Assembly: GCF_048403405.1 (NCBI RefSeq)
Contig: NZ_CP183129.1
DNA from: Escherichia coli
GTDB lineage: Bacteria; Pseudomonadota; Gammaproteobacteria; Enterobacterales; Enterobacteriaceae
DNA length: 64,000 nucleotides
Direction: 5' to 3' (one strand)
The notes under the pieces: generated by a model
Databases searched by the model: none
What the model was told of the DNA's origin: nothing
Seen by the model: the letters and a program-made list of their open reading frames with translations, nothing else
Shown: positions 8,619 through 55,886 of the stretch, in pieces
Position numbering within the stretch: position 1 is the stretch's first letter
How the letters are laid out: every line of letters starts with the position of its first letter
Translations under genes and position numbers: made by a program

Positions 8619-8657
8619 CAGTGCACTGGTAGCTGTTAAGCCAGGGGCGGTAGCGTG
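8619..8657 (+). promoter_or_regulatory. JUMPstart element with ops site (GGCGGTAGC), RfaH-dependent antitermination signal
   Basis: Sequence cagtgcactggtagctgttaagccaggggcggtagcgtg between galF and first O-antigen gene; ops core GGCGGTAGC visible. Confidence 0.6.
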
Positions 8658-28118: not shown

Positions 28119-28165
28119 TTTGTTATTCCTCTTTAAACCTGTCTGAACCGTTATCAACCGCGCAA

Positions 28166-28210
28166 TAAAAAAGCCCCCGGAAGGTGATCTTCCGGGGGCT
28201 TTCTCATGCG
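28166..28210 (-). terminator. his attenuator terminator hairpin
   Basis: Minus-strand hairpin agcccccggaagatcaccttccgggggc followed by T-run, between hisL and hisG. Confidence 0.65.
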
Positions 28211-28263
28211 TTCATGCACCACTGGAAGATCTGAATGTCTTCCAGCACACATCGCCTGAAAGA

Positions 28264-28314
28264 CTAGTCAGGATGATGGTGATGATGGTGGTGTTTAAAT
28301 TGAACGCGTGTCAT
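28264..28314 (-). CDS. hisL: his operon leader peptide (MTRVQFKHHHHHHHPD)
   Basis: 16-codon ORF with seven consecutive His codons upstream of attenuator hairpin. Confidence 0.85.
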   Translation of the reverse strand: MTRVQFKHHHHHHHPD

Positions 28315-30465: not shown

Positions 30466-30806
30466 CGGGATGAAATTTTAGCAAATAGTGCGATCGCCGG
30501 TGTTTATGCAAAATCTGATGACGGAAAATCAGCCATTTAAAGAAAAATTATTATGACAAGCCTCTCATTCTCTTGTCATTTCCCCCCCATTTAGGCACAA
30601 TGCGCCGCTGTCAAAAAATGACTAAAAACCGACGTTTCATCAGCGTCGGTTATTTTTTGCTTCAAACCAATCATTCATACCAAGAGGCCGGGCTTCGTAC
30701 CGGATAGATATTTACTAAAAATCGACAGTTGTTGTCGCTGAGGAATCCAAAAAAATGGGGCAATTTTTTGCTTACGCGACGGTTATCACCGTAAAGGAGA
30801 ATGACC

Positions 30807-51156: not shown

Positions 51157-53071
51157 CTGCTTTTCTCACATTTGCAGATTTTAAAAAAGCAAACAAAAAC
51201 CTCCGTACATGATGTACAGAACAATCTACCAGGTAGTGGCGTCAGAAAACCTCCGGGCCGCCTGCACTTTCCGGAATGCGCCGGTTATGAAAAACCGGAA
51301 ATTCAGTCTCTGTTGTAAGATGTACCCTCTGATACTACGTTTTCTCTGTGTATTTAACTCACTGTATTTATTGTCTTTTTAAGCTTGACTGATATTCTCC
51401 GGTCATAGTGTGCCGGATATACATCCCGTAAACTTCTCATTTTTATATAAAAATACCTGCACTCTCTTCAGCGCATCTGTCTCCTTTAAGTAAAAAATGT
51501 TTTCACGTATTGCTGTAAATTCATTTTAAATCAGTATATTACCTTGATATTGCTGTCTCCTGGTTTGATGCGTAATCGTTCTGCCTTTCTGGATGATTCT
51601 GGTGCTTCCGGGTGCATTCTCCTCTGCACATGCAACAGTTCGTCATCGCCACGCTCCCAAAAAGCATATAAAAACGAATCGAATTTGATATTTTTTTCAA
51701 TCGTTTTTCATAGGAATTTCGTAGGGTATTCTCCGCTATAACCTCCATATTTGCTGTCTTTTTCTTCATAAATCGTATGCAATGTAGCCTGTCTGTCAAG
51801 ACCTCTTCTCTGCTGTTGAGGAGACGATCTCATTTTTGGTCTTTTCCGGGAGAGAGGCTGTCAGATGAGCGAGCCGGATTTACTGTCAGAGGTACACCCC
51901 GTAGCAGACCTGTGCTCCCATTTCCGCGATCCGGAACCAACAACACCCTACGGTTAATACCATTTGAAGCGTCAGGTACTGCAGGAAGTTCCCCCCTGCG
52001 CGGACATCGGTTCCTGCCGACATCTCACAATACGGCCAGACTGTCATGCAGTAACACCCGCATGCGGTCTGCGGTTTTAAGCGCACTCTCCCGTTTTCAG
52101 TGCACCGATAATGCGTCATAGTAAGTCTGGGGGAAGTTACGGAATGCCTGTTAAGTGGTGCCGTGGGTGGAGACAGCTTACTTTTCTACAGCAACTGCAG
52201 TCATTCAGGATGATCAGGAGATATTCTGTCAATGTCACGATCCTGCCATTTTCGTACCCGCTAAGATACTTCCGTTACTGATGCTGTCCGCTTTTCACCA
52301 TTTCATCCTCACTGACAGGCGTTGCGTTTTGGGTCATCACCACAGCTTTACGTTTCTCTTTTAACCGGTAACGCTCTCCTTTGATATTCAGCGTGGTTGA
52401 GTGATGCAGCAGTCAATCCAGGAGCGCTGTTGTCCGGCAACCACCATATCAACTTCTTCCCGGGTGTGGCGGAGAGGTGGTATCCTGGCTGAGTTTCGAA
52501 GCGAACCGTTCTTTTTGACGGGCGCATTTTACGTCCGGGCTGAATGTAGTAACGCGGCATGGAACGTCGGCCCGTATACCATTGCCTTAATCTCCGCAAA
52601 GATAACCTCGTCATTCCGGACATTCTCTGCCAGGCATATGTCGATGTAATCCATAAACGATTTCAGCTTACCCCTTTTGTGGCCAGTCTTTCTGGCTGGC
52701 GGTTCAGGGGATGTTTTCTGGTTATCGTGTACCACAAAGCAGGGATATTGCCCCGATAGTCACATTTCAGATTGATCGCGGTCTGAAGATGTGGCACTGA
52801 GGTAACGTGCTGGTGTCACTGGTATTGCTGAAGTTATGGTTTTTCGGGGTCAGGTGAGCCTGTTGTGTGTATGCTTTTTGTTCAGGTCAGAGGGGGACTG
52901 TGTGGACAGCGGCTTTTGTCTCCGGGCATTCACGCCTGAACGATGAATGCGATTTTCAGCAATATTTGTCTTTGTGACACTCTCTGGTTGAGAAGCTAAT
53001 GCGCGCCCCTGTTTCCACAGAGAATGTACTGCACCCATTTTGTTGGACGATGAAATGGAATAGCCCCTGAT

Positions 53072-53593
53072 ATGTCAAAGCCAAAATACCCTTTTGAAAA
53101 GCGCCTTGAAGTCGTGAATCACTACTTCACTACTGATGATGGTTACAGGATCATCTCGGCACGTTTTGGTGTCCCCCGAACCCAGGTCAGGACATGGGTT
53201 GCCCTCTATGAAAAACATGGAGAAAAAGGTTTAATTCCCAAACCTAAAGGTGTTAGTGCTGATCCAGAGTTGCGTATTAAGGTCGTGAAAGCTGTGATCG
53301 AGCAGCACATGTCCCTTAATCAGGCTGCTGCTCACTTTATGCTTGCTGGTAGTGGTTCTGTAGCCAGGTGGCTGAAGGTTTATGAAGAGCGCGGAGAAGC
53401 TGGTTTACGCGCGCTCAAGATTGGCACCAAAAGAAACATTGCAATATCAGTTGATCCAGAAAAAGCGGCATCAGCATTGGAGCTGTCAAAAGACCGACGT
53501 ATTGAGGATCTTGAAAGGCAAGTTCGATTTCTTGAAACGCGGCTTATGTATCTAAAAAAGCTGAAAGCCTTAGCTCATCCCACGAAAAAGTGA
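53072..53593 (+). CDS. insJ: IS150 OrfA
   Basis: 173 aa; recalled InsJ sequence (MSKPKYPFEKRLEVVNHYFTTDDGYRII). Confidence 0.9.
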   Translation: MSKPKYPFEKRLEVVNHYFTTDDGYRIISARFGVPRTQVRTWVALYEKHGEKGLIPKPKGVSADPELRIKVVKAVIEQHMSLNQAAAHFMLAGSGSVARWLKVYEERGEAGLRALKIGTKRNIAISVDPEKAASALELSKDRRIEDLERQVRFLETRLMYLKKLKALAHPTKK

Positions 53594-54441
53594 AAGTACT
53601 CAACGAGCTAAGGCAGTTTTATCCTCTTGATGAGCTTCTCAGGGCTGCGGAGATACCGCGCAGTACGTTTTATTACCATCTAAAGGCTCTCAGCAAGCCT
53701 GACAAGTATGCGGACGTTAAAAAGCGTATTGGTGAGATTTATCACGAGAATAGAGGCCGATACGGATACCGTAGGGTAACGCTGTCTCTTCATCGAGAAG
53801 GGAAACAGATTAACCATAAAGCTGTTCAGCGCCTGATGGGAACCCTCTCACTTAAAGCAGCGATTAAGGTCAAGCGATACCGCTCTTACAGAGGAGAGGT
53901 AGGGCAAACCGCCCCTAATGTTCTCCAAAGAGATTTCAAGGCTACGCGGCCAAACGAGAAGTGGGTTACCGATGTTACTGAATTTGCAGTCAATGGGCGC
54001 AAGCTGTATTTGTCTCCAGTAATAGATCTCTTCAACAACGAAGTTATTTCTTACAGCCTTTCGGAAAGACCAGTGATGAACATGGTTGAGAATATGCTCG
54101 ATCAGGCATTCAAAAAGCTTAATCCTCACGAGCATCCTGTTCTGCACTCTGACCAGGGATGGCAGTATCGTATGAGAAAATATCAAAATATTCTTAAAGA
54201 ACATGGTATTAAACAAAGCATGTCCAGAAAAGGCAATTGTCTGGATAATGCTGTGGTGGAGTGTTTCTTTGGAACCTTAAAGTCGGAGTGTTTTTATCTT
54301 GATGAGTTCAGTAATATAAGCGAACTGAAGGATGCTGTTACGGAATATATTGAATACTACAACAGCAGAAGAATTAGCCTGAAATTAAAAAGTCTGACTC
54401 CAATTGAATATCGGAATCAGACCTATATGCCTCGTGTTTAA
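53590..54441 (+). CDS. insK: IS150 OrfB transposase (DDE)
   Basis: 283 aa; recalled InsK sequence; overlaps insJ stop. Confidence 0.9.
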
Positions 54442-54983
54442 CTGTCCAACTTTTTGGGGTCAGTACAGAATGAGGCTTGCCATCAGCCGAAACATCAGTA
54501 TTCCACGCCATACAGACGGCGCCTGACCATGTGCTGATGCAGGTAAAATGTTTCACTACAACTGTTCGGGTTGCTATGCAACGAAACAGCGATTCTCACG
54601 ATCTTTAACTGCAACGTTTTTCCGCCTGAAAGCTGACTGCCTCCTGCTGAGGTGGGAGGCTATGATTCAGTGCGTTTATAGTCTCCGGGGTATGCATGTA
54701 CCGGAGCATACCATTTCTGGTGGATAACAAGCCGGCACATTCAGACTGCAGTGAAGATGGAGGCACCTGGTTGTGAAGAACGTTTCTGCACGTGGCTGCT
54801 TCGCATCATCAATGGTATTCATACCCGCTCAGAAATGACCGGGTGCTGAAGCCCTCCGTTATCGCGCAGTATAATGACGTATATGATCTGTGGACGAGTG
54901 AGCGGCGTGCCTGATGTACGCCGCTATTACTGTATTTTACCACAGGGCTGGTTTTCTGCTGCCAGCCCTGTGGTTCTCAGACA

Positions 54984-55601
54984 TCAACTGTGAGCGGCAT
55001 CAACCGATGTACGGTATGCCATAAGCACGTACTGATCCATCAGATTTGTCAGTGGTTCACTCTGACCCTGACGTGCAATGATCCATTGCTCCAGATCTTT
55101 TTCTGATTTGTGTTTCAGGTTTTTCGTCCAGTCGTCAAGGCTGTTTCCGGTCATTAAGTCAAGCCAGCAGAGCCAGACCAGTTTGAGACGTAACTCCGTG
55201 CCGCCAAACTGACGGAAGAGGCTGATCAGTTTGTTTGCCAGAGAATGTTGCTTCAGGCGCTCACATTCAGACAGCAGGATCCCTTCCAGCATCGGATGAT
55301 GAACCAGCAGGTGTTCGCTGGTGCATAAATTCACCACCAGATCATCATCCAGGGACGGGGAGCTCCGTTTGTCCGGACCATAAATCAGCCGGTGCAGACT
55401 CTGGGGAACGATGGCAATCTCCGGTTTTTCGCCATTGAATGACACCCACCCGGGCGTCAGATTATGGAAATAGTAGATATTCGGATGACACACGCCCCAT
55501 GATACGGCGTGCCGGGTGAAGCCGGTCAGCCATTTCTGGTAGTTTTCATGGAGCAGCTCGTAACGGGTCTGATACTGTTGTTTCATTTTCATATTCCTCA
55601 C
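54984..55601 (-). CDS. Hypothetical prophage protein
   Basis: 205-aa ORF downstream of the alpA-like gene on the same strand; no family assigned. Confidence 0.4.
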   Translation of the reverse strand: MRNMKMKQQYQTRYELLHENYQKWLTGFTRHAVSWGVCHPNIYYFHNLTPGWVSFNGEKPEIAIVPQSLHRLIYGPDKRSSPSLDDDLVVNLCTSEHLLVHHPMLEGILLSECERLKQHSLANKLISLFRQFGGTELRLKLVWLCWLDLMTGNSLDDWTKNLKHKSEKDLEQWIIARQGQSEPLTNLMDQYVLMAYRTSVDAAHS

Positions 55602-55679
55602 GGGGGATAACAGGCAGCAGAGCGCCGCCGGCAGGCCGGAGATTGCGTCTGCTGTGGGCGAAGGGTTAGTGGTTAAAAA

Positions 55680-55886
55680 TTACGGACGGGACTGTGCAAT
55701 ACGCGCCTGCAGCCAGGCTTCCACTTCACTTTTCAGCCAGCGGGAGCTGCGCCCCATTTTGATGGGCGCAGGAAAGCCCCCATCTTTGATGAGTTTGTCA
55801 AACCACTTATCGGTTAGGCCGGTCAGTTGAGTGATAAACGCCATGTCGACCATCTGGTCATCCATCAGCGAAACTGGGGTAGCCAT
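55680..55886 (-). CDS. alpA: AlpA-family prophage transcriptional regulator
   Basis: C-terminal HTH region (FITQLTGLTDKWFDKLIKDGGFPAPIKMGRSSRWLKSEVEAWL) typical of Phage_AlpA; start trimmed to MATPV. Confidence 0.6.
   Translation of the reverse strand: MATPVSLMDDQMVDMAFITQLTGLTDKWFDKLIKDGGFPAPIKMGRSSRWLKSEVEAWLQARIAQSRP

Follow-up and report, generated by a model that had tools for sequence, protein, structure and literature searches.

The IS150 copy in this stretch of Escherichia coli DNA (64,000 nt, referred to here as the window) is a simple insertion with a 3-bp target-site duplication; nothing was lost and nothing was rearranged. For the account as a whole, in which IS150 transposed once into non-coding island DNA, probably with neutral effect, and later spread, we would give a probability of about 0.96, and among the data examined we found no evidence that contradicts a simple insertion. 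The complete element (IS3 family, IS150 group; 1443 bp) occupies 53025-54467 on the plus strand, with one GAA at 53022-53024 and the other at 54468-54470. An earlier, sequence-only reading of the window had placed IS150 here with GAA on either side, and its positions proved exact to the base. Across the element the window reads CCACAGA-GAA, then IS150 from TGTACTGCACCC to GGGGTCAGTACA, then GAA-TGAGGC.

The element itself is IS150: its length, termini, ORF layout, frameshift signal, and 3-bp duplication all fit. Over its full length it is 100% identical to copies that RefSeq labels "IS3-like element IS150 family transposase" and that many complete E. coli genomes carry. IS150-like sequence is present in 2864 of the 5426 complete E. 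coli genomes that form the set for all counts given here, and no second copy that might have served as a recombination partner was found in the window. The termini are TGTACTG and CAGTACA, and the terminal inverted repeats are imperfect, with 31-nt arms that are 71% complementary and end in TG and CA; the left repeat (IRL) lies at 53025-53055 and the right (IRR) at 54437-54467, both given on the plus strand.

Two ORFs lie between these ends, both on the plus strand and both present in the ORF list. orfA (53072-53593, 173 aa) encodes the DNA-binding/regulatory protein and matches Pfam HTH_28 (E=4e-23), with further matches to HTH_29/32/23. orfB (53590-54441, 283 aa) encodes the DDE catalytic part, a call made at the level of domains rather than of single D, D, and E residues, with a match to rve (E=5e-29) and others to rve_2, rve_3, and HTH_21. 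The two overlap at 53590-53593, with orfB in the -1 frame and free of internal stop codons. A predicted site of programmed -1 frameshifting, the slippery heptamer A-AAA-AAG, is found at 53554-53560 on the plus strand in the X-XXY-YYZ phase of orfA and is the only occurrence of A6G in the element. After a spacing of 6 nt comes a putative frameshift stimulator, a stem-loop at 53567-53614 (plus strand) with a predicted RNA folding energy of -18.5 kcal/mol, a z-score of -4.9 relative to shuffled sequences, and a 10-bp closing stem (GCCUUAGCUC/GAGCUAAGGC). The OrfAB fusion reconstructed in silico is 456 aa, the same length as the RefSeq "programmed frameshift" CDS on an identical IS150 copy. This copy is intact and apparently functional.

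With the canonical ends of the element in place, the match between the flanks is exactly 3 nt, and repeat lengths of 4 to 9 nt fail. Given the composition of the window, a 3-nt match would arise by chance with a probability of 0.016. By itself, such a match is weak evidence, merely suggestive; it is the empty site that is decisive. Comparison with an IS-free allele, which the sequence-only reading had called for, came out in favor of that reading. We joined 800 nt from each flank, keeping one GAA, and searched complete E. coli genomes with this reconstructed empty site. In E. coli AH50 it matched at 100% over all 1600 nt, unbroken, and at least 80% of the query was covered in 285 genomes. The AH50 junction reads TTTCCACAGA GAA TGAGGCTTGCC, with GAA present once (CACAGA-GAA-TGAGGC) and the flanks directly joined. 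Since the empty allele carries the two flanks side by side and in the same order, the insertion is a simple one, without deletion or rearrangement, as had been proposed from the repeats.

The raw alignment calls for one comment. The two flank alignments to AH50 overlap by a 6-nt repeated string, A-GAA-TG, because the target by chance has an A before it, the base with which the element ends, and TG after it, the two bases with which the element begins. The ends are fixed independently by the K-12 copy, which lies in different flanks and also begins TGTACTG and ends CAGTACA; the duplication is therefore 3 bp, the usual length for simple IS150 insertions, which occasionally duplicate 4 bp. Beyond the junction, AH50 aligns to window 32225-53026 (20.8 kb) with 1 mismatch and to window 54467-64000 (9.5 kb) with 4 mismatches and a change in poly-G length, and its island has the same gene order and protein accessions as that of the window. 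We read AH50 as a near-isogenic, IS-free allele of the window haplotype.

The landing site is, as described earlier, island DNA: it lies within a CP4-44-like island adjoining tmaR/yeeX. We took the content of the island from the annotated genome of SMS-3-5, whose identity to window 26601-64000 is 99.98%. The genes annotated there are yeeW, a cbtA pseudogene, cbeA, yeeT, yeeS, an antirestriction gene, a patatin-like phospholipase, RdcB, a dynamin-family gene, a GTPase, and an AlpA-type regulator, together with several IS remnants. The DNA on both sides of IS150 is unannotated. An IS21-family remnant (window 52275-52708) ends 316 nt to its left; on its other side, a hypothetical gene at 54984-55586 on the minus strand has its stop codon 516 nt from the element. 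IS150 does split a short ORF on the minus strand (52850-54556 in the window; L001 6626-6886 in the empty allele, where it spans the site as 86 aa from a GTG start). We rejected this ORF as a real interrupted gene: it has no Pfam match at E<=1 and its annotation is inconsistent, a 71-aa version being called a "hypothetical protein" by PGAP in some genomes and left unannotated in others. The insertion was probably neutral, a view we take solely because no credible gene is interrupted. A consensus scan of 52600-54900 for outward promoters and terminators gave no more matches than shuffled sequence, and no Rfam family passed the gathering threshold near 52 to 55 kb. Elsewhere in the window, Rfam matches were found to JUMPstart (8619-8657, at the start of the O-antigen cluster), the His operon leader (28165-28288), and the sRNA STnc240 (30586-30660).

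A separate observation concerns a run of 12 G residues at window 56051-56062, about 165 nt upstream of the alpA-like regulator gene (55680-55886, minus strand). Its length differs among near-identical strains, by approximately +3 in SMS-3-5 and +6 in AH50. This could reflect phase variation or assembly noise.

The window also holds an IS1 copy (15904-16671), at the 3' end of the O-antigen cluster just upstream of gnd, to which IS150 had been contrasted in its flanking repeats. The contrast stands, as the IS1 flanks, AATCAATAGTA and GGTTACGAG, carry no 8- to 10-bp direct repeat. Counting SMS-3-5, 76 complete genomes have this arrangement with IS1, which is therefore a fixed feature of that O-antigen locus type.

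How recent is the IS150 insertion? It had been described as recent, and by sequence it does look young, with a perfect duplication, intact ORFs, and an IS-free haplotype, that of AH50, only about 5 substitutions and a poly-G change away over 30 kb. It is not, however, specific to one strain. The same insertion was found in 138 complete genomes, both with a 300-nt probe over the left IS junction and with the 3046-nt occupied locus, or roughly 7% of complete E. coli genomes with this locus. Their sources are humans, dogs, chickens, a pangolin, a dolphin, rivers, and wastewater. Three of the occupied genomes serve as reference genomes in PMC9174282, strain 144 for ST38, SMS-3-5 for ST354, and Ecol_881 for ST648; ST38 falls in phylogroup D, and ST354 and ST648 fall in phylogroup F (PMC11728491). 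The ST and phylogroup labels used here are those of the two cited papers.

SMS-3-5, strain 144, and Ecol_881 have the same site, orientation, duplication, and IS variant as the window, and their similarity to it extends far beyond the element. Relative to the window, SMS-3-5 has 3 substitutions over 37.4 kb and Ecol_881 has 1 over 23.4 kb; in strain 144 there are 3 differences from approximately 17.7 kb to 50 kb and then 1 substitution in 14 kb. The boundaries of this similarity are sharp. In the 5' part of gnd (17066-17675), strain 144 and the window differ at 34 sites, and beyond that point at 3 sites in 32 kb; the O-antigen cluster of strain 144 (O1) is unlike that of the window. A second boundary appears between strain 144 (L007 1-3000) and Ecol_881 (L010), with 120 differing sites in the first 3 kb, colanic-acid genes from wzxC to wcaL, and 2 sites in the following 32 kb. 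Thus, a near-identical segment of more than 50 kb, including the island with its IS150, is common to strains labeled ST38, ST354, and ST648. It resembles an extensive recombination tract adjoining the O-antigen locus.

Around the same segment, individual strains carry additions of their own. In Ecol_881, sbcB and dacD are separated by a P22-like prophage (L008 1-26500; L010 36700-50000). In SMS-3-5, an IS3-family element that AH50 and strain 144 lack lies inside an aspartate ammonia-lyase gene (L003 40600-41828). IS2 is found near IS150 in some occupied strains, such as ECONIH1 and CUVET19-970.

Given this distribution, one might ask whether the site is a hot spot, with the occupied alleles of ST38, ST354, and ST648 arising from independent insertions of IS150. 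The neighborhood is rich in insertion sequences, with IS21 remnants and, in some strains, IS100 and IS2, and 10 of 13 nt of the left flank agree with that of the IS150 site in K-12, which may point to a target preference. Nonetheless, all occupied alleles examined share one position, one orientation, one duplication, and one IS variant at 100% identity, and they share it within a flanking segment of more than 50 kb in which strains differ by only 1 to 3 substitutions, bounded by the sharp mosaic breaks in gnd and wcaL. Coinheritance of the element with the shared segment is far more parsimonious, and we regard repeated insertion as very unlikely. The most likely history, favored by parsimony because position, orientation, duplication, IS variant, and flanking haplotype are all the same, would be a single insertion on one haplotype that later spread by descent and recombination.

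In a more far-reaching reading, IS150 would mark a single tract, longer than 50 kb, that begins in gnd or wcaL, takes in the his operon, and reaches into the island. Pandemic lineages unrelated to one another (ST38 in phylogroup D; ST354 and ST648 in phylogroup F) would have exchanged this tract by homologous recombination, with O-antigen-adjacent genes and island genes traveling along. We would put the chances of this at about even. In a weaker version, there would be a real target preference of IS150, as hinted by the 10 of 13 nt shared with the left flank in K-12.

It is also necessary to consider the opposite direction of change, namely, that the occupied state is ancestral for the haplotype and that IS-free alleles arose by precise excision of IS150, leaving a single GAA. 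Such an event restores the original sequence, so that one empty allele cannot tell the direction, and AH50 is indeed nearly identical to the occupied strains. The broader survey argues strongly for the empty state as the ancestral one. With a 262-nt junction probe, chosen because it is unaffected by other rearrangements nearby, the junction was uninterrupted in 1747 of the 5426 genomes, set against the 138 in which it is occupied; the empty state is the common state. Partial matches to the junction probe were seen in 141 genomes, close to the 138 occupied, so the counts are consistent. Empty junctions are found in many lineages, including O157:H7, O103, O145, and ST131, and on a diverged haplotype (99.2% identity), ST131 being an example of the latter. 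Precise excision across a 3-bp repeat is, moreover, very rare. We therefore consider loss of the element from an occupied ancestor to be very unlikely.

The remaining alternative, that the two GAA triplets match by coincidence and that IS150 arrived or was reshaped through recombination between two IS150 copies or an adjacent deletion, so that the flanks were not originally contiguous, draws on the non-negligible chance of a 3-nt match (0.016), on the existence of IS150 copies that lack a duplication, such as the K-12 copy by hokA (GTA versus AAC), and on deletion-associated IS150 events already on record (PMC11708052), but it is refuted by the empty-site alleles, as the flanks meet at a single GAA in AH50 and, overall, in 1747 genomes, and we give it almost no weight.

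How might the insertion have come about? The account we favor is a single transposition of a full-length, apparently functional IS150 into a non-coding, already IS-scarred part of the CP4-44-like island. By analogy with the IS3 family, the OrfAB transposase would be produced by -1 ribosomal frameshifting at A-AAA-AAG, would copy the element out as a circular intermediate, and would then paste it into the target; the target would be cut with a 3-bp stagger, the TG and CA ends joined to it, and repair would leave GAA on both sides. IS3-family elements, IS150 included, are known to make OrfA, OrfB, and a frameshifted OrfAB and to move by copy-and-paste, and the circular copy-out, paste-in intermediate is established for the family (PMC11708052). 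For the copy described here, we infer transposition activity, the circular intermediate, and the frameshift from these relatives. The event most likely originated on one island haplotype; from there, the occupied allele would have been inherited vertically and also carried along as a large chromosomal segment underwent homologous recombination.

The insertion is thus a known element showing known behavior, and it is already annotated in public RefSeq genomes. Its significance is very small: this is a textbook insertion sequence acting in a textbook way. It does offer a clean presence/absence marker (138 genomes occupied and 1747 empty), one that could help to trace a single island haplotype and its large recombination tract among ST38, ST354, and ST648 strains.

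Comparison with other IS150 copies places this one among known systems. The K-12 element (insJ/insK, next to hokA) has the same length of 1443 bp, the same termini, and the same inverted repeats. Its OrfA is identical to that of the window copy, its OrfB is of equal length, and it has the same slippery heptamer and stem-loop. The two copies are 99.3% identical at the nucleotide level, with 10 substitutions and no indels, and they differ by 3 amino acids, all in OrfB; the window variant of OrfB has G48, K197, and S268. They differ in their surroundings, as the K-12 copy lies at another genomic site and lacks a 3-bp duplication, with GTA on its left and AAC on its right (L004 2001-3460), whereas the window copy has a perfect GAA pair. 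The left flanks of the two are alike at 10 of 13 nt (TTTCCAACGAGTA versus TTTCCACAGAGAA), with TTTCCA..GAG.A in common, a likeness that could be due to chance or could hint at target preference.

The very same insertion is annotated in RefSeq genomes, for example in SMS-3-5 (ECSMS35_RS28075, protein WP_085960080.1), with the same site, orientation, duplication, and sequence; the occupied locus is 100% identical to the window over 3046 nt, both flanks included. Away from the insertion the strains are not alike: their O-antigen clusters, prophages, and other IS copies differ. The long-term evolution experiment with E. coli B provides a parallel for the event itself. There, a target duplication accompanied every IS150 movement that did not involve a deletion, one in dgt being 3 bp long, and deletion-associated movements gave none (PMC11708052). 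Simple IS150 insertions in that experiment thus leave short target duplications like the one described here; those events were observed in the laboratory (PMC11708052), whereas the insertion in the window is a natural one, common to many wild strains.
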